A DNA stretch of 17,788 nucleotides from a virus. Lineage: Duplodnaviria > Heunggongvirae > Uroviricota > Caudoviricetes. How positions within the stretch are numbered: position 1 is the first letter of the stretch; each line of letters starts with the position of its first letter. Location: the IMG/VR virus record IMGVR_UViG_2870464427_000002; one strand, 5' to 3'. Shown piece after piece: positions 1 to 17,240 of this stretch. A program made the translations under genes and the position numbers. The notes beneath the pieces are model-generated. The model had not been told where the DNA came from, made no database searches, and saw only the letters and a program-made list of their open reading frames with translations.

Positions 1-765
1 ATGCGCGAACGGGTATCGCAGCAGTTAAAAGAAATAGAACGTCTCTATGGCGTGAAAGTGCTGTACGCCTGCGAATCAGGCAGCCGCGGCTGGGGATTTG
101 CCTCGCCCGATAGCGACTACGATGTACGGTTTTTGTATGTCCATCCGCTGGAATGGTATCTGCGTGTAGAGTCACCGCGCGATGTTATCGAGCTGCCCAT
201 CGACGACGAATTAGATGTTTCCGGTTGGGAGTGGCGTAAGGCGCTGGGATTATTGAAAGGCGCGAATCCGACGCTGATAGAATGGCTGGATTCTCCGGTG
301 GTCTATCAACAAGATGAAGAAACGATAACGGCGCTTAAGGCAATGGTCCCAATGTGGTTTTCTTCGTTGCGTGCACGCTGGCATTACTATTCGATGGCGC
401 AGAAAAACTTCCGCGGCTATTTGCAGGGCGATGAAGTTCGACTGAAAAAATACTTTTACGTGCTGCGTCCGCTGCTGGCCGTACGCTGGGTTGAAGCGGG
501 AAAAGGCGTGCCGCCAATGCGCTTTTCCGAGTTACTGGCGGGAAGCGAGCTTGATGCGCCGTTACGCGTAGAAATAGACGAACTGCTGGAGCGTAAACAG
601 CGAGCGGGGGAGGCGGAATATGGTCCGCGTCGTCCTTTGTTACATGCGTTTATTCGCGCGGAGCTGGCGCGCGGGGAAACTCCACCAGTGTTACCGGATA
701 GCAGAGAAGGGGACGTTAAGGAACTGGATAGTTTACTGTACCAGACGGTAATGCGCCGGGCGTGA
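1..765 (+). CDS. Pol-beta-superfamily nucleotidyltransferase, function unknown
   Basis: 254-aa ORF starting at window position 1 (an upstream extension cannot be excluded). N-terminal motif ESGSRGWGFASPDSDYDV fits the GS-x(9-13)-DxD nucleotidyltransferase signature. Followed by a hairpin terminator. Family-level call from motif only. Confidence 0.6.
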   Translation: MRERVSQQLKEIERLYGVKVLYACESGSRGWGFASPDSDYDVRFLYVHPLEWYLRVESPRDVIELPIDDELDVSGWEWRKALGLLKGANPTLIEWLDSPVVYQQDEETITALKAMVPMWFSSLRARWHYYSMAQKNFRGYLQGDEVRLKKYFYVLRPLLAVRWVEAGKGVPPMRFSELLAGSELDAPLRVEIDELLERKQRAGEAEYGPRRPLLHAFIRAELARGETPPVLPDSREGDVKELDSLLYQTVMRRA

Positions 766-781
766 TGCCCGGCGTTATTTT
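754..781 (+). terminator. Rho-independent terminator between convergent genes
   Basis: 8-bp GC stem (754-761 pairing with 767-774), 5-nt loop, then T-tract TTATTTT (775-781). Overlaps the nucleotidyltransferase stop codon (763-765). Confidence 0.5.
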
Positions 782-1235
782 ACGGCTGATATTGCCAGCT
801 ACTGACTAAAGCGTACAAGTGGTTTGGAGAATAGCGCCAGCTTTCCTTCAGTTGCAGAAATTCAGCACAAAATTCACTGCAAAACAGGCGATCGCGCTGT
901 TCTTTATTACCGATAATAATTCCTAATGCTCCGCGCCAGTCATATTTTTTGCCATCATGTTTACGGAAAAAAGTTTCCACATCCTGAAGGCTGGCCTGGA
1001 GCGGCAGCATATCCCACTTATCCGCTGGCAATGGCATTATTTTTCCGCGTACACCGCGATCGCGCAGTGATGCGGAGTAACAAAGGTATCTCTTTTCACC
1101 ATGCTTAACGGCTAATTCACAGTGGGAATAACTACCGCGTGTGATTTTACGGGTAAGCCAGTCAGCCAGTCGGGCAATACCACGGTGCTCTGTTCGGCCC
1201 TTATAACAAGCGAGCCAGACAGTGGTTTTACTCAT
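780..1235 (-). CDS. hypothetical protein; possible permuted papain-fold (NlpC/P60-superfamily, YiiX/PPPDE-like) hydrolase in the moron position after the tail-fiber chaperone
   Basis: 151-aa ORF whose start overlaps the stop of the upstream tail-fiber assembly gene by 4 bp, suggesting translational coupling. A His (YSHCELAV) precedes a Cys in an FCSEF context, reminiscent of permuted papain-like hydrolases. Functional call is weak. Confidence 0.4.
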   Translation of the reverse strand: MSKTTVWLACYKGRTEHRGIARLADWLTRKITRGSYSHCELAVKHGEKRYLCYSASLRDRGVRGKIMPLPADKWDMLPLQASLQDVETFFRKHDGKKYDWRGALGIIIGNKEQRDRLFCSEFCAEFLQLKESWRYSPNHLYALVSSWQYQP

Positions 1236-1939
1236 GGTTGCCAGCCTGTTGAATAATCGTAGTCGAGCACCGCCTGAATATCGTCCAGTGCTTCCACCGC
1301 CGCGATATGACGCTGGGCGTTTGCGAACAAGCGCATATCGTGATCCATGGTGACCGATTCAAACTGGGCAGCGATTTCGTTGGTTAACTCAATCAGACCA
1401 TTATTTTTAGTTTTCCACATTAACCCTGGCGGAATTTTTTTCTCCGCTCCCATTTTTGTGAGTGAAAGCTGTTGGATACGGCTATTTGTATCACTGTGGA
1501 AGTGATGGTTGTTGATGATGATGTAATCGGTTGTGATGGCATCGCGTTGATTTTTGATTGCAGAGTATTTCGCCTCTTTAGCATCGGTTATAGATGGTTG
1601 CCATTTTTCACCATCCCAACGTTCAAAAGAACCTGTCGGGGAAATGACTGTTACATTTTCAGGTAATTGGCCCAATTCTTGAATAATAAGCTGGCTACCA
1701 TCAACTTTGTTATAAACAGTTTGGCCTCGATGATCTTCAATAAGTCTCCATGTTTCATTCTCCCACACTGGAGTAAAACCAGGAGCCTTTTCGGGAGGTG
1801 AAATTAATGTGCAATAATTTGGCAAGCCTGTATTAGGTGCAATGTATGCATCAGACTCACCGATATATTCTTGGGAGTCTTGTGAAAAATTATATACAGT
1901 TAGTATTTGAGCTTCATCAGAAAAGGTAAAAGTATTCAT
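1232..1939 (-). CDS. tail fiber assembly chaperone (Tfa, P2 gpG / Mu U family)
   Basis: 235 aa. N-terminal half ([20 protein letters not shown]...[12 protein letters not shown]...LG.LPENVT.ISP...W.G..W) matches the conserved Tfa N-domain of enterobacterial prophages. Lies immediately downstream of the tail fiber gene with a 4-bp overlap. Confidence 0.85.
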
Positions 1940-3516
1940 GCTAGCCTCACAATATAGTTGAATGCGATATTTTTGACGGTGTTTTCGGTGCTGCCGGTAT
2001 TATTAATGGTTAGGGAGTGGTTATGGGAACCAAGTGCAATTGAATGCGAATGGGTGCCGAGCGCAACAGTGTGCGAATGGGAACCAATTGTAACACTATG
2101 AACGTGTGATGGAACATTAATTGCCAAAGATGATCCGGTACCAGGGCCATATGATGTCCAGTCGCCTTGGCCCTCTGGTGAAGATGTCCCTGTTCTTACT
2201 GTTGCAGTTGCCGAGCCTGAGCCAGATGAACTTGTTGTTTTATTTCCATGGTTAAATGATGATGCAGTTTTAGTCCCCAAGTCTGTGAGGGGTGTGGTTT
2301 TCGTCCCTAAATCAGTACTCGAAATACTGCCCGTATGGTTATGTGATTTAACTCCATCCAGTTCAGTAGATAATATAGCGCGCCCACTGGATGGTTTTCC
2401 TTTAATTATCCATCCGCGCATATCAGGAATAACACCAGATGGATATGCAATTGCCAGTTTGGGATAGGAGGTTTTATTAAATGTCTGACCTGTCATCAGA
2501 GCGTAGCCTGAAGGTACAGAATCAGATGGCCAGGGAATAGGCATCCCAACAGGACAGCTTTCCGCAGCAATAGCCTTATCCATCGCTGCCTTAACCGCGT
2601 TCGGCGTCGCAGCTTCCGTCGTACTGGTGCTGTTGGTCGCATTATTAAGTTTCACGACCCCTTTTTGTGTCAGCGTACCGTCGGGGATACCTGTTATTTG
2701 CCCCCAGGCATGGGTATGGCTGGACGGCGCCGCAGCAATAGCCTTGTCCATCGCTGCTTTAACCGCACTTGGCGTTGCAGCTTCCGTTGTACTGGTGCTA
2801 TTTGTTGTGTTGTTAAGTTTAACGACTCCTTTCTGCGTCAGTGTACCGTCAGGGATACCAGTAATCTGATTCCAGGCATGAGTATGACTGGTTGCGGCTT
2901 TGCTATTTGCCAGGTCATATGCCGTTTTTACCGCTTTTGGCGTGGCTGCTTTAGTCTCATCATCGCTATTAGTTGCATTACTGAGCTGCGTAAAACCTTT
3001 TTGTGTCAGCGTCGCATCAGGATGATTTCGTGATTGCTGATGTGTTTTCAACGCGTCATCGACATATTCCCTGGTTGCCACAACGACTGAAGGGTCGATC
3101 AAAAGCGTCACCGCGTCTGCATTGGTGACTTCCATGACCGCGCGTATAACGATTTGCTTACTGGCCCCCGCAGGTAATCGTGGCTTATAGGTTTCCGGGA
3201 ATTTACCAATAGCGACCAGCGTGCCGTCGGTATCCAGTAACCCAACTTCGCGTACATACCAGCCTCCGACTTGTTCGGGAATAATCGCTTCTGCGATAAC
3301 CCAGGCCGGATTATCTGGCGCAATTTTTAATGTATTGAGCTGACCACGCCAGACCTCATGGACTACTTTGGTCTGACTTTCTGTCGGTTCGATATATTTA
3401 CCATTACCGTCGCCAACTACCATAGTTTGCAGACGGATCTGTTTTTGCTCGGCCAGTGCTGAGGCAATTTTGGCTTTGCCTGCAGCAGTTAATATTGTAA
3501 AAAATTCACTTGCCAT
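1936..3516 (-). CDS. tail fiber protein (P2 gpH / Mu S-like)
   Basis: Start set at ATG 3514-3516 ([16 protein letters not shown]...), 5 bp after the gpI stop; the longer track ORF overlaps gpI and is rejected. Conserved baseplate-attachment N-domain, three tandem fibre repeats (TLTQKG...ATNS...AATP.AVK.A.D.A), Gly/Ser/Thr-rich C-terminus with repeated S-H-x-H motifs. Confidence 0.85.
2518..3012 (-). repeat. tandem coding repeats, unit about 171 bp (57 aa), three copies, inside the tail fiber gene
   Basis: Near-identical DNA blocks, e.g. 2641-2700 versus 2812-2870. Protein repeats [49 protein letters not shown]. Confidence 0.7.
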
Positions 3517-3518
3517 TA

Positions 3519-4250
3519 TTACTCCGGATATACAGACATAATTTCGGTGCTCCAGTATCCTGTGCCGACCTTCATCGGTTGGGATTGTGTAAGGCGATCG
3601 GGTTGATAAGGTAGTAGTTGGATATATTCCTCCACACAATAACCCGTCGCTAAAAATATTCCTGATGACTGGCTGAGGCTTTCTGCAACAGGAGGCAATA
3701 CTGTAATGACTTCCCCTCCTTGCATGGCGCTGCCAATAACTGGTATTGGGCTTCGATTAATAAGCCAAATAACAATGCTTTCCAGCTTTGAACGAACATT
3801 TTTATATTCATGAATTAATGTGATAAGTGCATTGAATTCATCTTCATTTAATCCTTTTTCCTCTAGTGTAATATTTACCTTAAAAAAATAAGCCCTTCCC
3901 CCATATTCAAACCATTCTGAAATAGTTCCGGGTAAGGAAAGTATTTCCAGCACTCGCCGTACCGCCCAAATTGTTCCTTTATATTTATGCAGTTCAATGG
4001 CTTGTTTAATTAACTCGCGTTTCTCCCGCTCATCGGTGGTAAATAACCAACCTTCCAGCCCCTGAACGTGAAATTGTTCTGCAAGGGCTGGTAATGCCGA
4101 AGCATCAACCAGGTCGACCAGATAAACCATCAACGCCGTCAGATCGAGTTGGGCAAAACGCTCGGCGGCGATGTTTGCCAGAATCGAAAAACGCTCATCG
4201 CTGGCAAGCGGCGGCGGTGGCAGCAATTTATCCATCGCTGACTCCGGCAA
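3519..4250 (-). CDS. tail/baseplate protein, P2 gpI family
   Basis: 243 aa. LLPPPP...ER...LD...VD..DASALP.LA..FHV.G...W......[21 protein letters not shown] matches the gpI family pattern. Start may be the internal Met at 4235; overlaps the gpJ stop. Confidence 0.8.
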
Positions 4251-5343
4251 TCGTGACGTCTATTGCAGTGCATTCCGCCCATTCATGCGCCTGCAAAATA
4301 CGTTTTGTAGGCATATTCAGCGCAACGTCATAGACGCCATCGACCTGTAACACTTTGATTATCTGGTTTGGCACAATGTCCTGCCCCAGATGTTTCTGCC
4401 GCTGTTGCGTCCAGAGGCTAATCGCTTTACGCGCCGCAGCCAGCGTTGTCTCCTGATCGGCGGTGGTAAACAGCATTAGCTGCGCACGGATCTCATACGG
4501 CACTCGAAGAGCGCATTTCGCACTCACTTTGTCGGTCAGCGGTCGTTTTTTCTCCTTGCTGACTTCTTGTTCAATCTGCGCCAGCAACTCCGTGCCGGGT
4601 AGACCATTCAGGGTTAGCGGGTAGATCTCCACGCAGCCTTCTGGCAATCCCTCGTCCGGCCCCAGTACTGCAACGTCAATAATCGACTGGCTAACAGAAA
4701 GCGTATGAAAGCGGTAGGCACCATAGCTGCCCGCATTACTAAAGCTTTCTGGTGCCAGTTGGATACGCTGGCGCAATGCGTCATCGCTCTCTTCACCGCA
4801 GCCGCCCGTTGACGCAGTCAGGTTGGTTACGTTGATGTCATAATGACCAATCCTGTCGACCAGTGCGCTAATTTGTGCAGGCTGCCAGCCGTTACCCTGT
4901 TCACCTGCTGCGAGGCTGGTGGCAGGAACGGCGATATGCAAACTCCTGGCCGGAAGCAGAACATCTTCATCGGTGGCGAACATCACGCTATCAGAGGCAC
5001 TGGCCCGCGTCCCCTGGGGAATCAGGATATTGCCGGGATACGCACTAACGACCGAAAACTGCAACGTCGTTTTTGCAGGCTGCGCAGGCAAACGGTGAAC
5101 TCCCACCAACTCCCCTAAATAATCCAGCATTGGCGCGCGGGAATACGCGACCAGGTTTTGTTTCGCCGCTTCCTGAATGGCGATGCGTACAAGGTTTTCA
5201 CGATAGGCAAACAGGTCGATGAGCAACCGCTCAGCCTGTGCCGGATAGAGTTTTTTACCACTGGCATCTTCGTATTGCGCAATCATCTCACTGGTAATTT
5301 GCGCAGGATCGCGGTCAATAAAATTGGGTTCGGCTATCGCCAT
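4228..5343 (-). CDS. baseplate wedge protein, gpJ family
   Basis: 371 aa. Segments GSYGAYRFHTLSVSQSIIDVAV, LGQDIVPNQIIKVLQVDGVYDV and C-terminal [14 protein letters not shown] align with P2 gpJ as I recall it. Confidence 0.85.
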   Translation of the reverse strand: MAIAEPNFIDRDPAQITSEMIAQYEDASGKKLYPAQAERLLIDLFAYRENLVRIAIQEAAKQNLVAYSRAPMLDYLGELVGVHRLPAQPAKTTLQFSVVSAYPGNILIPQGTRASASDSVMFATDEDVLLPARSLHIAVPATSLAAGEQGNGWQPAQISALVDRIGHYDINVTNLTASTGGCGEESDDALRQRIQLAPESFSNAGSYGAYRFHTLSVSQSIIDVAVLGPDEGLPEGCVEIYPLTLNGLPGTELLAQIEQEVSKEKKRPLTDKVSAKCALRVPYEIRAQLMLFTTADQETTLAAARKAISLWTQQRQKHLGQDIVPNQIIKVLQVDGVYDVALNMPTKRILQAHEWAECTAIDVTIAGVSDG

Positions 5344-5693
5344 AACACCTCCGTTGAGTTGATAACGCCGTCAGCGGCGCGCCATTGCACACGTAACGTC
5401 AGATGTTCGCCGTCGATTACTGGTGTCACCTTCAGCAACCGACAGCGCGGTTCCCACTGGCGGATGGCTTCCACCGACTCCCGTACCACATGCGGGATAG
5501 CCCGCTCGATGGGGTAATCGATGTAGTGCCACAAGTTGCTGCCAAACAGCGGTCTGTGGGGATCACTGCCGCGCGGTGTACGCAGAATGATGTGTATTGC
5601 CTGGTGAATATCATCCAGCCCGCAGACGTATTCTTCAGGCCGCTGCAAGGCCGGTTGCCAGTGCAGCGTTGAGGGGCGTGTTTTTGTGTTCAT
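5334..5693 (-). CDS. baseplate protein, gpW/gp25 family
   Basis: 119 aa. Core I...I.ILRTPRGS and W.Y...P.........V.EAIR.WEPR match the GPW/gp25 family. Confidence 0.8.
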   Translation of the reverse strand: MNTKTRPSTLHWQPALQRPEEYVCGLDDIHQAIHIILRTPRGSDPHRPLFGSNLWHYIDYPIERAIPHVVRESVEAIRQWEPRCRLLKVTPVIDGEHLTLRVQWRAADGVINSTEVLWR

Positions 5694-5766
5694 GAGGGTA
5701 TTTTCGCCCTGAACGGGCTGTGGAGATATTAAAGCGATTTAGAAAACTGATTGATTAAAAAGAGAA

Positions 5767-5786
5767 AACCCGCCATCAGGCGGGTT
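5767..5786 (-). terminator. hairpin with downstream U-tract on the minus strand, between gpV and gpW
   Basis: AACCCGCC-ATCA-GGCGGGTT perfect 8-bp stem. On the minus-strand transcript it is followed by TTCTCTTTTT. Sits in the 98-bp gap after the gpV stop (5792-5794). Confidence 0.4.
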
Positions 5787-5791
5787 AAAAG

Positions 5792-6493
5792 TCAGTGTGA
5801 ATGGTGGTTGGAGTTGCCACCGCTGTCCTGCAATGCGCCGCTGGCCTGAACGTTGCCGATCACGTTGACATTGCCGGTTATCGTGGCTGCGTTACCGATG
5901 CCTCCACTTCCTGCCATCCCGCCAAGCCAGGTGAGTTTTTTCATTACCGTGACGTTGCCAGTAAAGGTGCTCATGGGCGCATCTACCGTCACTGCTGCTG
6001 CTTTAACCTCGACCTTAGTGGCGTCGATGCTGACATCGGTCGCTTTAACATCGACGGTATCGGAAGTCACGGTGACGTGTTGGGCTTTAATCTCAACGTT
6101 GGGCGATGTCAGGCGGGTGCTGTCGATAACCTCAATCACGATTTTCTCGATACCGCCGTTAATCGTCAGCTGGTGCGTGCTGCGGTCATATTCAAACGCT
6201 GCGCCATCAGAAAACTGGACGTAACGTTTGTCGCGCGAGGCTACAGGCGCGGTGTCAACCGTAGAATAAACGGCACCCAGCACCACGCCATCTTCACCGT
6301 TATCGTCCAGCAGAACTTCCACTTGCTCGCCCATATCCGGTAGCCAGTAGTCTTTATTGTCCTGGGAATTGCGTTGAAGTACCGCAAGCCAGTTGCTCTT
6401 CAGATTGTCACACTCTGGTAGAGTGACCCGTACCCGAACACTGGTTTCGTCAATATCGCTGATAATCCCCGTTTGACGGGTTACTCCTTTCAT
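5792..6493 (-). CDS. baseplate central spike, gpV family
   Basis: 233 aa. N-terminal OB-fold-like region typical of gpV spikes, a repetitive beta-rich middle (VTVTSDTVDVKATDVSIDATKVEVKAAAVTVDA) and a His-rich C-terminal tip (GGNSNHHSH). Confidence 0.8.
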   Translation of the reverse strand: MKGVTRQTGIISDIDETSVRVRVTLPECDNLKSNWLAVLQRNSQDNKDYWLPDMGEQVEVLLDDNGEDGVVLGAVYSTVDTAPVASRDKRYVQFSDGAAFEYDRSTHQLTINGGIEKIVIEVIDSTRLTSPNVEIKAQHVTVTSDTVDVKATDVSIDATKVEVKAAAVTVDAPMSTFTGNVTVMKKLTWLGGMAGSGGIGNAATITGNVNVIGNVQASGALQDSGGNSNHHSH

Positions 6494-6502
6494 ATTTCCT
6501 CC

Positions 6503-7543
6503 TTACTGGCTGGTCGCTGGCCCGCGTGACACGTCGATTTCAGTGGTATAGCCGCTGCGCACAAAACTGTGAGTAGATTTATCAATCAGCCACTGACCGG
6601 AAATCACGCCAAAATCGGTCAGTTCAATTTTATTGCCCGCCGTCAGTTCCGGGCAGCCCATCATTGTGAGCGTTCCGGTTTGCTGATATTCGTTGTGGCT
6701 GTCGAGTGCAGCGTTAGCCTTTGCCTGTGCTGCGCCAACGTCCGTCGCCCGACTGTTCAGTTTTAGCGTGTCGGCACTAGTGCCGACTCCACGGACAGAT
6801 GGTTTTTGCTGGCTGTTGTGAGTGTAGATAACCAGTTCTTTTTTCTTACTATTTTGATGCTGTACGGTGGCGTTCTTGTAGATCCGGTTAATGGTGTCTT
6901 TGAAGGTAAAATGAGAAACCTCTTTGCGATCGATCTTTTTCACAGGCGTCAGGCAGCGCAGCGTGGGTAAATGTGAAAAAATCAGCTCTTTTGTCGTCAC
7001 TTTTACGGCATAACCATATTCACTGGCCAGACGTTTGAGAAATCCGACATCGGTTTCACCATACTGCGTTACCCGGTCGATGGTGAGCGACTCGATTTTG
7101 CCCACCAGTTTCAGACCGTGCGTTTGGGCAATACGGCTGGCGATCGCCGAAAGCGTCGTTTCTTCAAAGCCCTGGCTGTTACGGGTGCGCAGCGCCTGAT
7201 TGACGGAAGTGGCGATGCCATCAATATTTACCGTGGAAGGTGGCGCTGAAATATCAATTTTATCAATAATATACTGGCCACAATCGAGCAGCTTTTCCCC
7301 CTGATAACCTATATGCAGCGCCAGCGTATCGCCTTTGCCGGGATACCACTCTTTTATCCAGCGTCCATCTGTGTCATCCAGTGTAATTGCGATGGTATCC
7401 GACTCGTTTTTGATGCTGTCGTGGTAACTGATGCTGGTGACATAGGGTGTGATGTCATAAGTGATATCTTTATGCCCATACCAGAGGGTAAAAATGGGCG
7501 TGAGTGTGGCAAAGACGCCACCAGTTACGCTCATCTCAGCCAT
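6503..7543 (-). CDS. baseplate hub protein, P2 gpD (late control D) family
   Basis: 346 aa. Size, position between gpX and gpV, and overall composition fit the gpD/gp27-like hub family; call rests on synteny and general resemblance. Confidence 0.75.
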   Translation of the reverse strand: MAEMSVTGGVFATLTPIFTLWYGHKDITYDITPYVTSISYHDSIKNESDTIAITLDDTDGRWIKEWYPGKGDTLALHIGYQGEKLLDCGQYIIDKIDISAPPSTVNIDGIATSVNQALRTRNSQGFEETTLSAIASRIAQTHGLKLVGKIESLTIDRVTQYGETDVGFLKRLASEYGYAVKVTTKELIFSHLPTLRCLTPVKKIDRKEVSHFTFKDTINRIYKNATVQHQNSKKKELVIYTHNSQQKPSVRGVGTSADTLKLNSRATDVGAAQAKANAALDSHNEYQQTGTLTMMGCPELTAGNKIELTDFGVISGQWLIDKSTHSFVRSGYTTEIDVSRGPATSQ

Positions 7544-7740
7544 GGTGGGATCTCCGATAAGGTTTTATTAACGGAAATGACCGGAATAATGAGCTGAATA
7601 CCGGAAGGCAGTACCGGGTAAATGGCTACATGTGGATTGGCGGCGATTATGCGTTCATAAGCCAGCGCATCACCGTAGTAATGCCATGCCAGGTTATCCC
7701 AGCGTTCGCCATCGGTGGTGATATGTTCAAGGTATCGCAT
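7531..7740 (-). CDS. tail protein X (P2 gpX-like, LysM-like fold)
   Basis: 69 aa. W..L...YYG.......I..ANP..A....LP.G....IP pattern as in P2 gpX. Overlaps the gpD start. Confidence 0.7.
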   Translation of the reverse strand: MRYLEHITTDGERWDNLAWHYYGDALAYERIIAANPHVAIYPVLPSGIQLIIPVISVNKTLSEIPPWLR

Positions 7741-8693
7741 TACCAGCTCCTGGTAATGGTTACGGCAGCAAGCTGGCTCACTGCGGGAGTGGTTTGTTGT
7801 ACCGTTGTACGTGCCTGCTCAACCAACGACGTGGCTTTATCGAACGTCGCTTCGGCGATGTCGCTGGTAATGTCGTCGAAAAGCGCCTGAGCATGGTCAA
7901 CCAGCGTACTGGCGTCATTGGCGCAGTCCCGGATACCTGGCATGTTACCCAGTAAAGCTTTAATCTGCGCCGACAACGCTTTTGGTAGGCCTGCCAGCGT
8001 TTGCAGATCCATTGGCTGTTTAAACAGGGTTTCGATGGCGTCGATTGTCTTTTTCAATGACGTAATTATCTTTTCACACTTTTCTTTTAACGCTTTGGCC
8101 TCTTTAATCATTGCTTTCACTTTTGCCACCGTTTTTTTAATATCTTCAATGGATTGTGTCAGTTCATCCAGCATCTCTTTGGCCTTACGCATACCTTCTT
8201 CAATGGCGTTTAATATCTGATCAAACCAGGACTCCACCTTGTCGGGAAAATCGCTCGCCTTTTCCTCGATGTTGGGCTCCTGGGTGGTAATCGCCGGAGG
8301 TAAAAGTGGATTTTTAGGATCGCCGGTGTACTCCTGGAGCGACATCGTTCCGTTTTGGGCAATCACATTGCCCCAGGGATCGGTGTGCTGGTGGGTGGCG
8401 GTTAGCTCCGTAATCACAAACCAGCCGCGATAATCGCCATTGCCAAATACCAGTGCCATCGCCTTGTGAGCAAGCATGGCTTCACGCAGTCGGTTCAGCT
8501 CTGTTGTGGGCTGGCAAAACTGGCTGTGCAGGGAAAATTCCAGCGCCAGCATATCCAGCTTATCGCCAATAAACTGCACGCCGGGTTTGCCTTCTATACG
8601 GGCATGTGTGGCGTAATCCACGCCCATTGTGCTTTTAAAGCCGTCCCAGAATGTGACAACCTTAAATTCAATCTCTCCTAAAACGGCATACAT
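7740..8693 (-). CDS. gpU-like tail protein with a long C-terminal coiled-coil extension
   Basis: 317 aa. The first ~120 aa (MYAVLGEIEFKV...GKPGVQFIG...L.LEF.L.........L..L...AM....MALVFGNGDYRGWFVITEL) resemble P2 gpU. The remaining ~190 aa are Lys/Glu/Ala-rich heptad-like sequence. Start overlaps the tape measure stop by 1 nt. Confidence 0.65.
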   Translation of the reverse strand: MYAVLGEIEFKVVTFWDGFKSTMGVDYATHARIEGKPGVQFIGDKLDMLALEFSLHSQFCQPTTELNRLREAMLAHKAMALVFGNGDYRGWFVITELTATHQHTDPWGNVIAQNGTMSLQEYTGDPKNPLLPPAITTQEPNIEEKASDFPDKVESWFDQILNAIEEGMRKAKEMLDELTQSIEDIKKTVAKVKAMIKEAKALKEKCEKIITSLKKTIDAIETLFKQPMDLQTLAGLPKALSAQIKALLGNMPGIRDCANDASTLVDHAQALFDDITSDIAEATFDKATSLVEQARTTVQQTTPAVSQLAAVTITRSW

Positions 8694-11068
8694 TAGGCAT
8701 ACCCCCGGCGCTGCTGCTGCGCCATTACATCGTTAATCATTCTTTCCAGTTCGCGTTTACTCATCGTCAACACGTTCTGAATCTCTTTAGTGGTGTTTTG
8801 TCCGTTACCCTGCACGGTAATTTGTGGCGAAAAATTCACCTGAACTTTTCCTGAGGAACGGGAAGGTAGCGTCGCCGCTTTGGTTACGGATTTACCAGGT
8901 AAAGAGGCAGATACGGGTTTGGCGGCTGTATTTTTTGCCGCTGGCGCCGATGACGGCGTAGCCGTTTTGCCGGATGGCGCGAGTTGTTTGCCCACCGGCG
9001 GCGTTAAAATCGCACCGGCAACGCCTGGAACAACGGTCGCGGGGGAGACGGATGCGGTATTAGTCGTGCTTGTAATAGCTGTAGCCGATCCTTCTGTACT
9101 AATACCCATCGTGGTTTTTAGCCAGTCTGGGATGGCGTTTTTTACCTGATCAATAATGCCTTTCAGAGCGGGGAAGGCATTCATTATGCCGTCAACCAGA
9201 CTGCCCAGAAGATTGCTGCCGAACTCGCTAAAACTTGCAGGCATCTCGACACCAAACCAATTCATCACACTGGAAAAGGCGCTATAGAACAACTCCAGCG
9301 GTGACCAGTCGAGAATCAACCGACAAATTCCTGCAATGCCGCCGTCAAAGGCCGTGGTGATACGTTGCCAGATGGTCGAAAAGAACCTGGAGATAGGCTC
9401 CCAGTTGCGATAAATCAGATAAGCAGCGCCCGCAATCGCAGTGATGACCAGACCAATGGGATTCATCAGTAGCACCCGGCCTAGTGAGAGAACGGTCCGA
9501 CCAACCAGTTTCAATGTTCCAATCAGGCCACGACCAAGCAGTTGCGTTAGCCATTTTGCGCCGCCACCCAATGACTTAACCGCTGATAGCATCTTACTTG
9601 CCCCGCCTGTGAGCGCCAGACTTGCCTTGACTTTCAGGAAGATATCGACCAGACGAATAAACGGCGAGGTGATGAGGTTCGCGCCCAGCTTTAAAACATT
9701 CAGCGCACCGTTAAACAGCCAAATCGCCCCGACGATTTTCGCGATGTTTTGCACCAGTGTCGGGTGCTCACGTAGCCAGGCGCTGAACTGACGAATAACC
9801 GGCGTAAGGCTTTGTGCCAGCTCGCCAATCAGCGGCATTAATTGCAAGCCAATGCTGAGCCATAAATCATTTAACGCCAGCTGTAACGCTTTAGTCTGTT
9901 CAATGGGCGAGGCCATTTGCGCAGAAAAGTCGGCATCAATCAGATTCTTGCTGGTGGCTTGCATGGCAGAGGCTTTTAACTGGCGATATTCCTCCATATT
10001 CGCCAGCATAGGGGCCAGGAATTCCACTGTTTGCGCATCGCCGAACATTTCCCCCAGATTAAACTGCGTCACCATCGATTGCAGCGCATTGCTGCGGGCA
10101 GATAAATCTTCGATCTGCATGGTGCGTTTGAAGGTGTCGAGGATCGCCGGATTCATCTTCTCAAGCTGCATTTGCACGATATGAGTCATGGCTTCGCTAA
10201 CACCCATACCGTTTTGCTGATGCTCAAGCAGAGAGCCTTGCAGATCAACGCCCTGGCTGACGAACCAGTAATCGGTTTTTTTCGAAAAGGTGGTTTGCAG
10301 AAAGTGGTCGAAATTCTCCGCCGCCGCACTGGCGCTGGCCCCGTTTTTCATGGCGATCTGCATGGTGGCGGTCAGTTCAGCCATACCTTCCAGACCCTGA
10401 GCGCCGGTTTTACCTGCAAATTTCTCTATCCACTGCGTTTGTTCAGCAATGGCAGGCCCACCGCTTTTGCTAATGCCGTACATCATGTTTTGCGCGGCGT
10501 GGAAATTTTCCGGGGCAATATTCAGTCGATCATGGGTTGCGAGCGCGGCATTCGCCCATGTTTCAGCACTTTCGCGCGTGGCGGTGGCAGCTTTGGCGAT
10601 CTCCGGCATATAACGGTTGAGATCCTGTATCGACGACAAATTGCCTTCGATCAGCGTTTGGGCTGCGTTCTGTAAGGTGGTCTGCTGCTGGTTAAAATCC
10701 ATGCTCCAGTCGCGCAGATTAAGGCTGAGCGTCTCGCGGGTTGTAGCATTCATCCCACCTTTGGTCGCCATATTGACCATGTTGTCCTGAAACTCATACG
10801 GCAACTTCCAGTCGGGGGCTTCAACATTGAATACTTTGCTAAATTGCCCGGCAAATGTTTGGGTTTTCTCCATCAGATTAGCGCGGCTGCGGCTATTTTC
10901 CTCCAGGCGGAGAGCGGAATCGGCAAGCTGCTGCGTTAGTTTGATAACTGTCGCCTGCTGAGTAGAGAGAGTTAACAATGTTCTGGCGTTGAGTGAGCCG
11001 TAACGGGCTATTGCCTGCGTCAACGTCTCATTACGCGCCTGAAGCTGGGTAATAATATCGTTGGCCAA
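8693..11068 (-). CDS. tail tape measure protein
   Basis: 791 aa. Alpha-helical N-terminal region, central hydrophobic Gly-rich segments (LIGTLKLVGRTVLSLGRVLLMNPIGLVITAIAGAAYLIY), Ser/Thr/Pro-rich C-terminal region. Lies between the chaperone and baseplate genes. The track start is a TTG codon, so the exact start is uncertain. Confidence 0.85.
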   Translation of the reverse strand: MANDIITQLQARNETLTQAIARYGSLNARTLLTLSTQQATVIKLTQQLADSALRLEENSRSRANLMEKTQTFAGQFSKVFNVEAPDWKLPYEFQDNMVNMATKGGMNATTRETLSLNLRDWSMDFNQQQTTLQNAAQTLIEGNLSSIQDLNRYMPEIAKAATATRESAETWANAALATHDRLNIAPENFHAAQNMMYGISKSGGPAIAEQTQWIEKFAGKTGAQGLEGMAELTATMQIAMKNGASASAAAENFDHFLQTTFSKKTDYWFVSQGVDLQGSLLEHQQNGMGVSEAMTHIVQMQLEKMNPAILDTFKRTMQIEDLSARSNALQSMVTQFNLGEMFGDAQTVEFLAPMLANMEEYRQLKASAMQATSKNLIDADFSAQMASPIEQTKALQLALNDLWLSIGLQLMPLIGELAQSLTPVIRQFSAWLREHPTLVQNIAKIVGAIWLFNGALNVLKLGANLITSPFIRLVDIFLKVKASLALTGGASKMLSAVKSLGGGAKWLTQLLGRGLIGTLKLVGRTVLSLGRVLLMNPIGLVITAIAGAAYLIYRNWEPISRFFSTIWQRITTAFDGGIAGICRLILDWSPLELFYSAFSSVMNWFGVEMPASFSEFGSNLLGSLVDGIMNAFPALKGIIDQVKNAIPDWLKTTMGISTEGSATAITSTTNTASVSPATVVPGVAGAILTPPVGKQLAPSGKTATPSSAPAAKNTAAKPVSASLPGKSVTKAATLPSRSSGKVQVNFSPQITVQGNGQNTTKEIQNVLTMSKRELERMINDVMAQQQRRGYA

Positions 11069-11257
11069 AATTGTTTCTCTTTAAATATTGATAATGGCCC
11101 GCTGGTTATTTTTCTAAAAAAAGGGGCAGGGAAGAAATAAACCTGACGGGCTTGGGAAACTCGCAGACATCAGGTCTGCGAGTCATATTCGATTTTTATT
11201 TGGGCGCTGGCTTCATCCAGCCAGTTGCTAAAGTCATCGACGGTAAGGGCGTCTATC

Positions 11258-11575
11258 TCACTGGGTGGAAAGCGAAACCATCTCGCCAGTAACGCCATCG
11301 CTTGCCATAACAGTGGCGGATTCTGTAGCCACGCTAAGCATGGATTGAAATCGTTTCTGCAATGCCTGGTAATCCAGCAAATCCATTTCAGCTAAATCTT
11401 CTGGCACCAGTCCGGTCATTGCCGCCATTAGCGGTTCATCCCACTCTTCAGGTTTTTCGCTGATCCGGCGCGCGTTGCGCATATCTTTTACTTTCAGGCG
11501 ACGTAATTGCAGAGTGTTAATTACGTCTCCCGCCGCTGAAGTAAACGGGAACTGTAAGATATAATGTTCTTTCAT
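11258..11575 (-). CDS. tail assembly chaperone, P2 gpE family
   Basis: 105 aa, acidic, in the conserved position between tube and tape measure. An alternative frame stays open past its stop (see findings). Confidence 0.75.
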   Translation of the reverse strand: MKEHYILQFPFTSAAGDVINTLQLRRLKVKDMRNARRISEKPEEWDEPLMAAMTGLVPEDLAEMDLLDYQALQKRFQSMLSVATESATVMASDGVTGEMVSLSTQ

Positions 11576-11625
11576 TTTGTGTCCTTATTTATTTTGCAAA
11601 GTTCGGGGCCGTAGCCCCGAATAAC

Positions 11626-12150
11626 TTAGCCACCGATGTTATTGCGATAGGTACTTAATTGATCCACACCATTAACCCGGAAAATATTGGCCATATAATC
11701 AAGTTCAAGCAGCGTTTCACCATCAACTACTTGTTTAATATAAGTGCAACCAAAGGCGCTGCTGAATTCCGGGTTTTCATTCTGTTTAAATGTGCCCAGT
11801 GGATTCTTTTTAAACATCACGGTTAAATGTGTCACTAGCGCTAATTGATTCGCTTTCCCCTGGGAGTTATAGCAATCAATACTGGAGCGGCACTGTAATG
11901 CAACCGCCTGCCACGGGTTTGCCGTTTTACGCATTACGTCCTGATAGAAGGAGTTCCATTTAATTTCGCCCTCCAGTTTATCGAAACCCGCCGGGAGTTC
12001 GATTTTACCCACCATGCCCAGTGCTTTATGCTCCTGCATAATTAAACTGACATCCGGCAATTTAATTTCGGTTGCACGACCTAAAAGGTTATTACCATCG
12101 AGATAAATATTGGCGTTGGTAATACGGTTAATTTGAATTTTTCCAGCCAT
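11626..12150 (-). CDS. tail tube protein (P2 FII family)
   Basis: 174 aa. C-terminal ...VNGVDQLSTYRNNIGG closely matches the P2 FII C-terminus (VNGVD.L...R.NIG). Start overlaps the sheath stop by 1 nt. Confidence 0.85.
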   Translation of the reverse strand: MAGKIQINRITNANIYLDGNNLLGRATEIKLPDVSLIMQEHKALGMVGKIELPAGFDKLEGEIKWNSFYQDVMRKTANPWQAVALQCRSSIDCYNSQGKANQLALVTHLTVMFKKNPLGTFKQNENPEFSSAFGCTYIKQVVDGETLLELDYMANIFRVNGVDQLSTYRNNIGG

Positions 12151-13573
12151 TAGCTATTGCTCTCCAGAGAGACTAAATATTCAGAAGTAATTTCAGTTTC
12201 AAACGTCAGACGTTCCAGCGGCGGCGGCGGGGTGAATTTATAGCTCAGCAATAAATGCCCAGCGCTGAGTTCAGTCGGTGAATTTCGCGCCGGATCGTAC
12301 CAGCATTCAAAGCCAAGCAGTGCGCCGTCGGCAATCAGCTTACGGCCCCAGGTATTTACCGATTCGGTCAGGGCATCAATCAGCGCCTGATTAATCGGCA
12401 TATCAATATACTGCTGACTGAAATAACGGATTGACTCATTAATTACATCGCCTGTCCGGCGGACGTTTTCAAAGTTACGCATATGGGTCACGGTAGGCCA
12501 CGCTGCAGTGCGGTTGCCCCACAAGCGCAGACCAGAGCCGTAACTATTGAAAATAGTGGTAATGCCGTTTTCGTTTAGCTGATTCACTTCGCTTTGTGGA
12601 TCATCAATCATTGCGGAAAGCGAACGTTCAATACCGGTAATACCCTGAATTTCTTGGTTTGAGTTGCTCCACCAGAAACCTTTTTCGAGGTCTACTTTGG
12701 CACGTAGCCCGGCAGCGCGCGAAGAGAGCGGTTCGAGAACTTCCTGGTTAGTGATGCCATCGTAAACTTTGACGTGTGGGTAACATAAACGCGCACGATC
12801 AGAGCTGGTGTTGAAGTTGATAGCCCCTTGCGAACCGCGTCCTGCCAATACCTGCTGGAATGTCGTCCCAATCGGGGCATCAATGTAGGTAATCGCACCA
12901 AGTTTTTCCGCTTGTGCAATCAGCTCTGTAGTTACTGATTTTTGCGTACAGAACACGGGAGCAAGCAGGATTTTGGCGTAGAAACCATACAGGTTATAGG
13001 TGTCCTGTAGCAGTTTCATCCCCGTGCGGTCGCCTGCGGTATTTACGGTACCGATAATATCGGCTGCGGTGACCTTTGTAGGGTCGCACCAGGAATAATA
13101 GGCACAAACTTTCGCACCAGGAGGAATGTCGGCTCCTTTACGGGTAATTATGCCTGTTTGTTCATCTACGCTAAATGCTGCGGTGTTAAAGGTTGATGAA
13201 TTTGATGAAGAGGGCTTTAGTACCACGTTACGCACATTGCGGTGAGCGAGCTTCGCCTGGTTGTTAGCATCAAAAGTGATACTCTCATTGCTGATGTTGG
13301 AGCCATGTTTTGCCGGATCCAGCACGTTAATCACCACCACCGTACCGGCACCGTGGTCATAAATTGCCTTCAGTGCCTGTGGGATCGTAAAGTTAGCCTG
13401 AGTCGAGCCAAACTGCGCAGCATCGCTTTCAGAAAGGCATAATGTTGGTTTATTTACCGGACCGCAGGGGCTGTACCGATTAAAGCGATGACGGCGGATT
13501 TTACCGCTTTAACCGGACGCGGGCCGGTTTCAATTTCAATAGTTTCTACACCGTGCAGATAATTAGCTGCCAT
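12150..13573 (-). pseudogene. contractile tail sheath (P2 FI / Mu L family) interrupted by an apparent 1-nt frameshift near 13457-13468
   Basis: From ATG 13573 one frame encodes MAANYLHGVETIEIETGPRPVKAVKSAVIALIGTAPAVR then stops (TAA 13454-13456). The adjacent frame is open from 13508 and continues PVNKPTLCLSESDAAQFG...VVVINV... through the 396-aa track ORF, whose C-terminus (LRLWGNRTAAWPT...YKFTPPPPLERLTFE) is sheath-like. One extra G in mRNA GCGGTCCGG would join the two frames. Confidence 0.7.
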
Positions 13574-13760
13574 GTACAATTTCCTCTACGTTATTTTGTT
13601 CTTCCTGAGTGATGACAGGAGTCAGATGATTGCGGGCAATCATGGTCATGACCCACTCGTTGTCTTCTGGCAGATCAATTTCACTGTTCGGCCACAATAA
13701 GATTTCTTGTCCATCGGCAAGGGTGACGCCGCTTGCTGGGCCGTTGTAGATGTATTTCAT
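13563..13760 (-). CDS. small hypothetical protein upstream of sheath
   Basis: 65-aa ORF overlapping both neighbours. Its position recalls the small gene preceding the sheath gene in Mu-like tail modules. No motif recognised. Confidence 0.45.
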   Translation of the reverse strand: MKYIYNGPASGVTLADGQEILLWPNSEIDLPEDNEWVMTMIARNHLTPVITQEEQNNVEEIVHGS

Positions 13761-14212
13761 TCAGTTTCCTCGTAGTTAACTTCCGTAAGCAGGGGAAGAT
13801 CCGTGCTTTCCTGTTCAGCGATAAATAGCGAGCTGGTCGCCATTTCCAGGATGTAGCGGCAGAAACCGCCGCTCTCACCCGTATTAATTTCTTTTTCAAG
13901 CCAAAGAAGACGATCGCAATCAGGAAGCTGAAGGCCACCCAATGCGCTGCGTATGTGATCAAGTGCGTTTAATGCATCACAATTTTTGCCAACAATAACG
14001 GTGGCGGTTAAGCGGAGTATTTGCTGTTGCACGATGGCATTACTGCTTTCGGGCGTAGCAAAGACAGAACCGCTATAATTAATAATCACTGCAACTCGTT
14101 GTGTCTGTGGAATATATTTCTGGGCATCCTTAGATGAAATAAATATATCCATTTCGGAGTTGTGTTCACGTAATCTGGTCACAACAGAATTCATTACAGA
14201 TAAAATTTCCAT
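13757..14212 (-). CDS. hypothetical tail-associated protein (possible tail completion protein)
   Basis: 151-aa ORF with an AAGG ribosome-binding site upstream of ATG 14210-14212; first gene after the terminator. Function inferred from position only. Confidence 0.5.
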   Translation of the reverse strand: MEILSVMNSVVTRLREHNSEMDIFISSKDAQKYIPQTQRVAVIINYSGSVFATPESSNAIVQQQILRLTATVIVGKNCDALNALDHIRSALGGLQLPDCDRLLWLEKEINTGESGGFCRYILEMATSSLFIAEQESTDLPLLTEVNYEETE

Positions 14213-14317
14213 ATAGGCTGTACCTTAATTACCGCTCACTTCGTTATCGTTGAAATGTATTCTGAAGCAGCGAAGGTGAAGAATCTTTTAATGTGATTTA
14301 GAGAAAAAATTGAATGG

Positions 14318-14343
14318 TTAAAAAAATCCCCACCCTTACATAA
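14318..14343. terminator. strong bidirectional intrinsic terminator between the lysis cassette and the tail genes
   Basis: Perfect 11-bp stem TCCCCACCCTT / AAGGGTGGGGA with loop ACAT, flanked by A7 (14311-14317) and T5 (14344-14348). On the minus strand the hairpin is followed by a U7 tract. Confidence 0.6.
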
Positions 14344-14356
14344 GGGTGGGGATTTT

Positions 14357-14671
14357 TCAATAACTGCCACGTTGTAACAGCTCGATTTTGCTATATAAGG
14401 CATCCAGCTTCGCTTCTAATACTGCTTGCCCACGAAGATAATCTTCTCTGCGGACATAATGCAGCGGAAGCTCGGCACGAAATTCGAGAAATTCTCTTTC
14501 CAGTTTCGACCAACTTGTTTCTGATTCCCGGCGCGCGTTTTCCAGAGATTCAAAACGCTCATTAAGTCGTTTTTCAATTTGTGCTAACAGCAGTTTTCCG
14601 GCAGCAAACATTAATCCAACGAAGGAAAGCATAAGGGAGATCACTTCCCAAAAATCGATACTGAGTTTCAT
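14357..14671 (-). CDS. membrane-anchored coiled-coil protein, possible lysis accessory (spanin-like)
   Basis: 104 aa. N-terminal transmembrane helix (VISLMLSFVGLMFAAGKLLL) followed by a charged helical region. Last gene of the lysis block. Confidence 0.45.
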   Translation of the reverse strand: MKLSIDFWEVISLMLSFVGLMFAAGKLLLAQIEKRLNERFESLENARRESETSWSKLEREFLEFRAELPLHYVRREDYLRGQAVLEAKLDALYSKIELLQRGSY

Positions 14672-14683
14672 CGGCCCCTCTGA

Positions 14684-15289
14684 TTAATGAAGACAGCTTG
14701 CCTGTCCCCAGAGTAAATAGCGGGCGGCATGTTGATAGAGGATCATCTTTGGATAGCGACGATTTTCTCGCCAGTTCGTGGCGCTGCGCCCGGCGTTGAC
14801 TTGCTCAACATGACCAAACCAGCTAGTGGCATCTAACCCTTTGGATGCAGCCAGTTTTTTATCCCGGTTAACCCACCCCTGACCGCCGTTATAGGCGCTT
14901 AGGGTAAACGCCATACGCTGACAATCATTTTTCGCAGAGATGTTTTTCCACAAATGCTGGTCATATTGCACCAGCGCGCGAATCGCCCAGGTTGGGTTAT
15001 ACGGTTTGTTTTCACGCAATTGTGGATACAACTGGCTTATCCATGTCGCTGTAGCAGGCATAAATTGCGCCATACCTTGTGCGCCAACGGGGGAACGTAC
15101 CATTGGCTGCCAGGCGGACTCCTGGTGTAATTGCCCGGCAAAGTCGGCCACTGGGGCATTCAGCCCCCAGACTTCTCGAGCTGTACGAATTAGTTCGTTT
15201 CGCCATGCCAGAGAGGCTCTCGGCGGTTCAGAGGCGTTGAGTGGGAAAAGAACGAAAATAATCATAGACGCGATATATTTCAGCCACAT
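14684..15289 (-). CDS. lytic transglycosylase (SLT/GH23 domain) with N-terminal signal sequence; putative endolysin
   Basis: Start set at ATG 15287-15289 (MWLKYIASMIIFVLFPLNA...), 2 bp after the holin-like stop; the track's longer N-terminal extension is rejected. SLT motifs present: HQESAWQP, GAQGMAQFMPATA, AYNGG. Confidence 0.8.
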   Translation of the reverse strand: MWLKYIASMIIFVLFPLNASEPPRASLAWRNELIRTAREVWGLNAPVADFAGQLHQESAWQPMVRSPVGAQGMAQFMPATATWISQLYPQLRENKPYNPTWAIRALVQYDQHLWKNISAKNDCQRMAFTLSAYNGGQGWVNRDKKLAASKGLDATSWFGHVEQVNAGRSATNWRENRRYPKMILYQHAARYLLWGQASCLH

Positions 15290-15291
15290 CA

Positions 15292-15579
15292 CTATAGCCC
15301 TAACGCGACGGAAAGGCAGACGGCAGCAACGATGATAGCCCGGCGAATCATTGCCGCCGCGCAGCAACGCGGTTCCTTCCAGGGGCAAAAAGAGTCAGGC
15401 CGTGCCCAGGGGAACAAACTGCGATCGAGCCAGTATCCCAGCACCGCGGAAAGCGAAACCAGGCTTAGTTTATAAATGACGACCGGGATTTGTGCTGAAG
15501 AGGTCCAGCCGATCACGACAAACAGCGCGACGGAAGCGACCAGCCAACCGGAAAGCCGGGGAAGAGTGACTTTTTTCAT
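15292..15579 (-). CDS. small membrane protein, putative holin
   Basis: 95 aa with two to three predicted transmembrane segments. AGGAG ribosome-binding site 8 nt upstream of ATG 15577-15579. Immediately precedes the transglycosylase. Confidence 0.5.
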   Translation of the reverse strand: MKKVTLPRLSGWLVASVALFVVIGWTSSAQIPVVIYKLSLVSLSAVLGYWLDRSLFPWARPDSFCPWKEPRCCAAAMIRRAIIVAAVCLSVALGL

Positions 15580-15875
15580 ACGGTATCTCCTGATAAGTGA
15601 GCGTTTAGTGTCGCCAGAACCCGCCAGTGAAGAATGAAAAAAGCTTTAATAAATAAGTTTAAAAAATAGATTCTCTATAAATGAACATGCCCGCTAATAA
15701 ATCCACTCAGCAATTAAAGAGCAAAAGGTGACCTCGCGAATAAGCGCGTCATTATGCAGGGAAAAGATGATGGTGAATCGTAGGAATAGTCAGTAGTTAT
15801 TTGATTTTTAAAGTTTGTTTAAGAAAGTCAGCGACTGTGAGGGAAACGATCTTTTTACACTACAAGTAAAAATAA

Positions 15876-17219: not shown

Positions 17220-17240
17220 TCGTGTAAAATGATACACCTG

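Follow-up and report, generated by a model that had tools for sequence, protein, structure and literature searches.

A predicted YiiX-like permuted NlpC/P60 enzyme encoded beside the tail fiber chaperone in a tail-only phage island of Escherichia coli and Salmonella

The caudoviral DNA recorded as IMGVR_UViG_2870464427_000002 in IMG/VR – 17,788 nucleotides, referred to here at its full length as the window – carries a tail-only phage island, at one edge of which a 151-amino-acid open reading frame (ORF) directly follows a gene for a Tfa-like tail fiber chaperone. We refer to this ORF as gene X. Its product is soluble and is predicted to be a Cys-His enzyme of the permuted NlpC/P60 (YiiX-like) type; we consider it probable that it is a circularly permuted NlpC/P60 papain-like enzyme, closest to the YaeF/YiiX group (MEROPS C92, 'PPNE'). 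A role in the tail fiber module is suggested by the position of its homologs and is put forward tentatively, at rather less than an even chance. The combined reading – a permuted YiiX-like enzyme that serves as a conserved accessory of the tail fiber module – we hold to be evenly poised. Gene X represents a phage-borne sister family, itself new, within a known superfamily, and the class of enzyme is already known.

Gene X occupies positions 780-1235 on the minus strand, has an ATG start, and encodes a protein of 17.8 kDa with an isoelectric point (pI) of 9.5. The initial annotation had described an ORF of this length and position that shares an ATGA with the Tfa stop codon and has a His motif followed by a Cys motif, and each of these points is confirmed from the sequence: the overlap lies at 1232-1235 on the minus strand, with the X ATG at 1235-1233, and the motifs S37-H38-C39-E40 and F118-C119-S120-E121-F122 are both present, with H38 encoded at 1124-1122 and C119 at 881-879. 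This is a real and conserved gene, beyond a chance ORF, because its orthologs are intact, its ratio of nonsynonymous to synonymous substitution (dN/dS) is low, and its homologs are many. All 12 orthologs compared are intact, each has exactly 151 codons, and they share 76-97% amino acid identity. Relative to the window copy dN/dS is 0.03-0.09 (in the 8 of 11 pairs with a calculable dS; the most distant pairs are saturated), and between E. coli and Salmonella the same ratio (omega) is 0.043 for gene X, compared with 0.04-0.11 for the tube, baseplate, Tfa and holin genes. A word-indexed search returned 89 homologs at E ≤ 1e-3, and a profile search of 1.84 billion representatives returned 4,419 representatives of 50%-identity clusters at E ≤ 1e-3, with 1,919 at E ≤ 1e-10. 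Single-domain proteins of 130-190 residues make up almost all of the 150 profile matches listed.

The kinship to permuted enzymes is seen at the level of profiles. A single-sequence search of the PDB gave structure 3kw0 at E 0.4 with both motifs aligned, which is suggestive only. A profile built from 48 relatives of gene X, down to 34% identity (A1), matched 3kw0 – a Bacillus cereus 'cysteine peptidase' known as BcPPNE – at E 6.6e-5; its match to E. coli YiiX (2if6) had E 1.1. The His and Cys motifs line up in both. When A1 was compared by HHalign with a 20-sequence YiiX alignment, the two were related with 88% probability (E 3.1e-6), and YSH38, GKKY98D and FC119SE of gene X were paired with YSH49, GKPY115D and YC128SE of YiiX.

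An AlphaFold2 model of gene X made from the 48-sequence alignment has a mean predicted local distance difference test score (pLDDT) of 78 and a predicted template modeling score (pTM) of 0.75. It contains beta strands at residues 6-11, 38-44, 50-56, 61-67 and 74-79, and alpha helices at 20-32, 83-93, 100-108, 119-126 and 137-149, in the order beta1-alphaB-beta2..beta5-alphaD-(alphaE)-alphaF-alphaG. Xu et al. defined the permuted PPNE core as beta1-beta5, alphaD, a Cys-bearing alphaF and alphaG (PMC3142127), and the modeled order of elements in gene X is that of this core. H38 opens strand 38-44 and C119 opens helix 119-126, placing the His before the Cys, and candidate elements of a hydrophobic S1 pocket are seen in the amphipathic helix 20-32 and in a conserved hydrophobic GALGxVL stretch at 102-108, in a low-confidence part of the model. 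In overall fold the model resembles solved structures of permuted proteins: the fold comparison figures are 11.3 for YiiX and 11.1 for BcPPNE, followed at a greater distance by TseH (7.1), MARTX RID (6.8) and Aichivirus 2A (6.6), and lowest among the permuted proteins by PPPDE (5.8) and PLAAT4 (5.7). Each of these seven is a circularly permuted NlpC/P60 protein, and canonical CHAP domains in the same comparison reached 3.7 at most. A Foldseek search of BFVD returned uncharacterized phage proteins, one of which is named as a C92 family member. The guess in the initial annotation of a permuted NlpC/P60-type hydrolase is thus upheld by sequence-profile, profile-profile and fold comparisons and narrowed to the YaeF/YiiX group, and the two motifs that it singled out are those found to align with the catalytic His and Cys; the profile search and fold prediction that it had proposed as checks favor a papain-like fold and gave no clear match to an unrelated family.

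Conservation within the family is concentrated around the predicted active site. Invariant in the 48 sequences are A9, Y36, S37, H38, C39, E40, S56, D59, G61, V62, R63, K65, W74, Y98, C119, S120 and P137, and a second alignment of the distant branch (A4) has the same pattern of conservation, His38, Tyr98 and Cys119 included. The five invariant residues Y36-S37-H38-C39-E40 (codons 1116-1130, minus strand) stand at the start of beta2 and align with FSH(49)TG of 3kw0 and YSH(49)TG of YiiX. In F118-C119-S120-E121-F122 (codons 870-884, minus strand), the nucleophile is predicted to be C119, the first residue of helix 119-126, and F118-C119-S120-E121 aligns with YC(128)SE of YiiX and IC(154)SE of 3kw0. 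The catalytic residues described for BcPPNE are Cys154, His49, Glu64 and Tyr127, and those for YiiX are Cys128, His49, Glu64 and Tyr115 (PMC3142127); by these published roles, the catalytic His, Tyr and Cys have their counterparts in H38, Y98 and C119. H38 is predicted to act as general base, and the invariant Y98 (codon 942-944, minus strand) is predicted to provide the NlpC/P60 signature tyrosine, equivalent to papain Gln19, which contacts the oxyanion or the P1 carbonyl; in YiiX, Tyr115 hydrogen-bonds the bound fatty acid. BcPPNE holds a lysine by Ser48, His49, Glu67, Asp68, Tyr83 and Tyr90, of which Asp68 binds the ligand's amino group within S1' (PMC3142127), and by these published contacts S37 and D59 correspond to Ser48 and Asp68. 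D59 belongs to the segment D59-R-G61-V62-R63-G-K65 (codons 1041-1061, minus strand), which spans the beta3-beta4 turn and beta4 and aligns with EDDGVR of 3kw0. Candidates for the third residue of a triad, from the alignment, are S54, S56 and E40; this residue is reported to be dispensable in LRAT, and to be dispensable or replaced in LRAT and PPPDE1 (PMC3142127). No leader peptide or hydrophobic segment was seen in any member examined, and the distance from the N-terminus to the YSH motif is 25-40 residues; because there is neither room for a leader nor a hydrophobic segment, the gene X product should be cytoplasmic. A lipoprotein reading of 'WLAC' (residues 7-10) was rejected, as C10 is not conserved and a leader peptide has no room.

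Gene X is a sister family to PF05708 (Peptidase_C92) rather than a member of it as curated, because its matches fall below threshold and the homology is evident only at the profile level: 2 of the 48 relatives match the Pfam model, the best at E 0.0053, and its gathering threshold is not reached. Relative to the PF05708 proteins YiiX and BcPPNE, gene X is about 50 residues shorter, having neither their N-terminal extension nor several of their inserts and, in the model, no terminal strand beta6; it also lacks the conserved Glu64 and has invariant residues of its own in C39, E40, R63, K65 and W74. The YiiX alignment opens with a hydrophobic leader-like stretch, whereas gene X has no obvious signal sequence, and YiiX and BcPPNE are encoded at a chromosomal housekeeping locus, whereas gene X is found in phage tail modules. 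The gene X protein matched nothing in Pfam at E ≤ 1, nothing in NCBIfam, and no family among the PADLOC anti-phage defense models at E ≤ 1. It does match PHROG 1128 (E 8e-59), labeled 'enoyl-CoA hydratase/carnithine racemase-like', and the same enoyl-CoA hydratase label is attached in GenBank to gp51 of phage SuMu and to Pasteurellaceae proteins. That identity was rejected, as the analysis gave no support for a crotonase fold or an ECH match in Pfam; rejected too was membership of the canonical NlpC/P60 or CHAP endolysins, which are defined by a Cys N-terminal to the His and a polar murein-peptide pocket. Our literature search found no publication describing the gene X family and no paper tying permuted NlpC/P60 proteins to tail fibers; the Salmonella genes STM4198 to STM4219, the first of which is the ortholog of gene X, appear in the literature searched as gene lists or polymerase chain reaction targets only, and the main text of the SuMu genome and proteome paper does not mention the homolog.

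Homologs of gene X recur at one position, after the fiber chaperone. We sampled three sets of loci: 83 phage and IMG/VR loci of close relatives at 45-98% identity (set 1), 79 loci of a distant branch (set 2), and species-representative genomes of the Enterobacteriaceae, Pasteurellaceae, Neisseriaceae and Moraxellaceae (set 3). In about 190 of the 235 sampled loci gene X lies directly after a Tfa-like gene and usually overlaps it. In 78 of the 83 loci of set 1, the start of X overlaps the stop codon of an upstream ORF of about 200 residues or is at most 3 nt away. One homology network unites the Tfa of the window with 80 of the 82 upstream proteins, and upstream representatives match DUF4376 (18 of 30) and Caudo_TAP (7 of 30). 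The same network takes in 70 of 73 upstream proteins from set 3, where the overlap is 1-19 nt at 56 of 79 loci and the genes lie within 4 nt of each other at 7 more, and still accounts for 40 of the 79 upstream proteins of set 2. The Mu-like phage SuMu has the order fiber, Tfa, X and then com, and Acidovorax phage AP1 has Tfa, X, holin and lysozyme. A P2-like metagenomic contig has fiber genes, a small ORF, X, a 139-residue ORF and then the sheath gene; other metagenomic contigs have a fiber gene, Tfa or DUF4376, X, a small ORF and then an endolysin or holin; and one has a 1,031-residue tail-tip protein, DUF4376 and X. The post-chaperone position recurs in Mu-like, P2-like and siphovirus prophages of enterobacteria, Pasteurellaceae, Neisseriaceae and Moraxellaceae, as well as in the tail-only island common to E. 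coli and Salmonella.

The initial annotation had framed gene X as moron-type cargo, and this framing is weakened by the lack of a promoter or terminator of its own, by its fiber-like composition, and by the same post-Tfa position in four bacterial families. A scan limited to sigma-70 consensus promoters, together with terminators, found no promoter-like or terminator-like sites on the coding strand between the fiber gene, Tfa and X. The G+C content of gene X is 0.474, compared with 0.479 for the fiber gene, 0.419 for Tfa and 0.441 for gpI, and 0.54-0.575 for the baseplate genes gpJ, gpW and gpV; gene X thus shares the composition of the distal fiber module. The ATGA overlap indicates co-transcription with Tfa and makes translational coupling probable. 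A survey across strains with related tail clusters, another check the initial annotation had proposed, located gene X in 202 of 5,426 complete E. coli genomes, and in 190 genomes at least 80% of the remaining cluster is present, so that gene X is kept in essentially every copy of the island. The features of a classical moron – its own promoter or terminator, deviant composition and patchy presence – were not found, and gene X behaves like a conserved late tail-operon accessory, not like a strain-specific insertion or a lysogenic-conversion moron.

Gene X also stands outside the part of the fiber module that is exchanged between relatives. The 235-residue gene upstream of it (1232-1939, minus strand) is Tfa-like because it matches DUF4376 (E 1.9e-14) and Caudo_TAP (E 3.1e-7) in Pfam, and it follows the tail fiber gene (1936-3516, minus strand), identified by Pfam matches to Phage_tail_fib, three copies of Phage_fiber_2, and Collar, and by the RefSeq annotation of a near-identical locus. 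In six alleles (L008, L009, L012, L014, L016 and L017) homology extends from X through the C-terminal half of Tfa, breaks at 1549-1561, and resumes inside the fiber gene at about 2560-2585 in five of the six and at about 3058 in L014. These breaks delimit an exchangeable specificity cassette composed of the fiber C-terminus and the N-terminal half of Tfa, and gene X and the DUF4376 C-terminal half of Tfa (about 1232-1555) form a constant end, inherited together. Because gene X lies outside the swapped cassette, a function matched to the receptor of the fiber is disfavored, and with it the fiber-matched form of the immunity-factor idea in the initial annotation. A generic role, linked to the half of Tfa that is conserved, would agree with the pattern.

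Several observations weigh against reading gene X as an active YiiX-like enzyme of the fiber module. As to the enzyme, the acidic Glu64 shared by YiiX and BcPPNE falls opposite either Y53 or A55, according to the alignment used, and neither is conserved; a Foldseek search of the model against the PDB gave no significant match; and residues 100-118 of the model, a likely lid just before C119, have low confidence (pLDDT 49-60). As to the module, 34 of the 79 loci in set 2 belong to a single P2/phiCTX-like lineage in which X follows gpX and precedes lysis genes (in the order capsid, small terminase, gpL, gpX, X, a 73-residue ORF, muramidase, gpR, gpS, gpV), overlapping gpX by 10 nt. In jumbo phage RP12 the homolog stands alone on the opposite strand, and to our knowledge the Tfa genes of Mu and P2 are not followed by a counterpart. 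Overlaps of the ATGA kind occur all along the operon and therefore prove only co-transcription. Because Tfa is usually the last tail gene, any gene inserted at this boundary will adjoin it, and the association with Tfa could be no more than the effect of a module boundary that tolerates insertions.

What gene X may do – its catalysis, the type of its substrate and its biological role – we infer by analogy. His38 in beta2 and Cys119 at the N-terminus of its helix would form the catalytic dyad, with Tyr98 as the signature tyrosine, and Ser37 and Asp59 would match the BcPPNE residues by which the leaving moiety is held at its amino group. An acyl-thioester would form on Cys119, and the acyl group would then be hydrolyzed or transferred; by analogy with characterized permuted members it would most likely be fatty or hydrophobic and carried on an amine- or hydroxyl-bearing partner. 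The protein would be made only with the late tail genes, as the last product of the operon and translationally coupled to the fiber chaperone, and would act with, on or via the Tfa-fiber complex, or would reach an acyl substrate in the envelope by delivery with the tail. In its most specific form, gene X would be the catalytic partner of the DUF4376-type chaperone and would, as a YiiX-like acyltransferase or hydrolase, fatty-acylate or trim the fiber or Tfa, or cut acyl chains of outer-membrane lipid or lipopolysaccharide (LPS) in the target; the first variant would give a lipid-modified adhesin and the other would act at the Tfa-fiber tip during adsorption. Stated so precisely, we think the proposal improbable.

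The expectation that gene X removes or transfers a hydrophobic acyl group comes from the precedents of YiiX, BcPPNE, Tox-Act1, LnsA and LRAT/PLAAT. In crystals, the hydrophobic S1 tunnel of YiiX contained a fatty acid and the S1' site of BcPPNE a lysine (PMC3142127). Tox-Act1 is a phospholipase whose toxicity requires its His and Cys, LnsA participates in lipoprotein N-acylation, and the LRAT and PLAAT enzymes are acyltransferases and phospholipases. Tox-Act1 and TseH, permuted NlpC/P60 effectors of type VI secretion systems, are farther from gene X in sequence and structure, and are secreted toxins active in the periplasm with cognate immunity genes, whereas gene X has no adjacent immunity-like gene. 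LnsA and Lnb/DUF4105 are YiiX-like permuted proteins that use a Cys-His dyad for acyl transfer to an amino group, a chemistry that fits the conserved Ser and Asp of gene X proposed to bind an amine; the Staphylococcus aureus LnsA has a signal peptide and requires a membrane partner, LnsB, whereas gene X is predicted to be cytoplasmic and only the neighboring Tfa suggests itself as a partner. The LRAT/PLAAT (HRASLS) and picornavirus 2A H-box/NC proteins, which often have a C-terminal membrane anchor, are much less similar to gene X in structure. The signature around the Cys is NCEHF in these families and FCSEF in gene X. In genomic position the parallels are genes for receptor modification or exclusion, namely llp of T5, cor of lambdoid phages and gtrABC, which likewise adjoin a fiber or receptor-binding module. 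Their expression is early or takes place in the lysogen, and the receptor bound by the adjacent tail protein is the target of llp and cor; gene X, by contrast, is late-coupled and does not co-vary with the fiber specificity cassette.

Other explanations share some of this evidence. Gene X might encode a late lysis or egress enzyme, cytoplasmic and passing through holin lesions, that cleaves an acyl or peptide link in the envelope (phospholipid, lipoprotein or LPS) and so helps to break the outer membrane or destroys receptors on cell debris. A holin or endolysin follows X directly or after one small ORF in AP1 and at loci L176/L178, L181 and L087, X lies between gpX and the muramidase cassette in the P2/phiCTX-like lineage, the characterized permuted relatives act on envelope lipids, and no member has a signal peptide, which is endolysin-like. 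One of the longer members that were examined for fusions has a lipobox-bearing C-terminal extension that looks spanin-like by eye, which counts on the same side although it is too unreliable to use, as is another that appears by eye to join a sheath N-terminus to a truncated X. We nevertheless rate a lysis enzyme as rather unlikely: because tail genes are usually followed by lysis genes, adjacency to the latter is to be expected; the gene with which X is coupled is always the tail gene before it and not the lysis gene after it; and the Mu-like islands and SuMu have their lysis genes about 13 kb off, at the opposite end of the operon. A peptidase or amidase of peptidoglycan that cuts murein peptides, as do canonical NlpC/P60 and CHAP endolysin domains, would be in keeping with membership of the NlpC/P60 superfamily, with the first proposal of TseH as a cell wall hydrolase, and with the match of Asp59 and Ser37 to the residues of BcPPNE that bind an amino acid ligand (PMC3142127). 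The fold comparison, in which canonical CHAP domains are remote, and the rejected canonical membership are set out above, and we regard this activity as very unlikely.

Two further alternatives concern whether gene X belongs to the tail module and whether it is an enzyme at all. As a classical moron or fitness cargo inserted after the last tail gene, it would be expressed in the lysogen and would alter the physiology of the host or keep other phages out. P2-like phages have a known hotspot for cargo and defense genes after Tfa. A recognizable copy is present in only about 26 of 50,697 deposited phage genomes, most of which read as temperate or prophage-derived, plus four Ralstonia jumbo phages, and the free-standing gene in RP12 and the lack of a counterpart that we know of in Mu and P2 count on this side as well. 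Cargo usually varies between close relatives, whereas gene X keeps its position in four bacterial families and several tail types; together with the missing promoter- and terminator-like signals, the upstream overlap in most loci, the G+C content of the fiber module and the lack of a PADLOC match, this makes the cargo explanation distinctly unlikely. A non-catalytic protein that has kept the fold as a binding or structural module, a second chaperone or a fiber adaptor would account for the failure to identify a counterpart of Glu64 by alignment, and for some distant relatives that replace C39 or alter CSE (P0211 has FCNES and YSHVE). His38, Tyr98 and Cys119 are invariant in the 48 sequences and in A4, however, a pattern typical of an active site rather than a scaffold, and the third residue is reported to be dispensable in LRAT (PMC3142127). 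There is thus only a very slight chance, in our estimate, that the protein is non-catalytic.

For the reading of gene X as a YiiX-like accessory of the fiber module, its fixed position after the chaperone suggests an unrecognized enzymatic step in fiber assembly, adsorption or egress. If gene X acts on envelope lipids or on the fiber, it would be relevant to engineering the host range of phages and tailocins, and a lipid-directed activity would add an enzymatic lipid step to phage and tailocin adsorption; we know of no description of such a step for this family. If it is ordinary late cargo, the practical gain is a corrected annotation only. A large family of 4,419 cluster representatives that has had no curated model and is mislabeled in PHROGs and GenBank can now be placed with the permuted, lipid-directed NlpC/P60 proteins.

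Some features of the neighboring genes may be recorded here. Many of the Tfa-like proteins upstream of X (window 1232-1260; loci L002-L085) end in a conserved YDYSxGW before the overlapping X start, and the GGN-TGG codons of this motif may double as the ribosome-binding region of gene X. Within the fiber gene, positions 2562-2891 contain internal direct repeats that correspond to the three Phage_fiber_2 units and cross-match in blastn comparisons between alleles. Among the P2/phiCTX-like loci, L126 (5624-7578) and 33 similar loci have the homolog between gpX and the 73-residue ORF, followed by a PG_binding_1 muramidase, at the head of the lysis cassette.

The window is 99.99% identical over 15.9 kb to the chromosome of E. 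coli strain 2016C-3878. Its Mu/P2-like island (780-17788) contains genes for a Mor-family activator, holin, lytic transglycosylase, sheath, tube, tape measure, baseplate, fiber, Tfa and X, and no head, replication or integration/integrase genes were found in it. Equivalent islands lie at L001 15780-31465 and L173 1686-20456. The island is situated between an RlaP-family nucleotidyltransferase gene and lysC, and the orthologous Salmonella island (STM4198-STM4219) is at the same lysC-yjbD locus. The RlaP gene (1-765; Pfam E 3.7e-96) is the convergent gene that the initial annotation had placed just beyond the ORF, and it is indeed there: it ends at 765 and the stop codon of gene X ends at 780, leaving 14 nt. 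A terminator-like hairpin of the RlaP gene (753-775, plus strand), recognized by a terminator scan and from the sequence, occupies this gap and delimits the tail island on this side.

Between E. coli and Salmonella, dN/dS is 0.04-0.11 for eight genes of the island (X, Tfa, tube, gpW, gpJ, gpD, gpU and holin), and by this pattern the island looks like a long-maintained tailocin-like element rather than random prophage debris. The sheath gene (12150-13574, minus strand) has a 1-bp deletion in a G-run at about 13467 relative to 2016C-3878, with a frameshift at about codon 36, which could be either a real inactivation or a homopolymer sequencing error. In 2016C-3878 (L001 23693-26068, equivalent to window 8693-11068) the tape measure gene has an internal stop at codon 509 and the sheath gene is intact, and the window has the opposite states, so that each of these near-identical islands has a different single disabling lesion. 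An ISKox3-type insertion of the ISL3 family (15890-17205; 1,316 bp) lies between the holin and Mor-family activator genes, flanked by an 8-bp target duplication, ATGTGTAT, at 15882-15889 and 17206-17213, and separates the activator from the upstream region of the late operon. In Salmonella Infantis (L173 12748-15583) a gtrABC-like O-antigen glucosylation operon is present between gpV and gpW of the orthologous island, and by locus tags the same insertion is found in LT2 as STM4204-4206.

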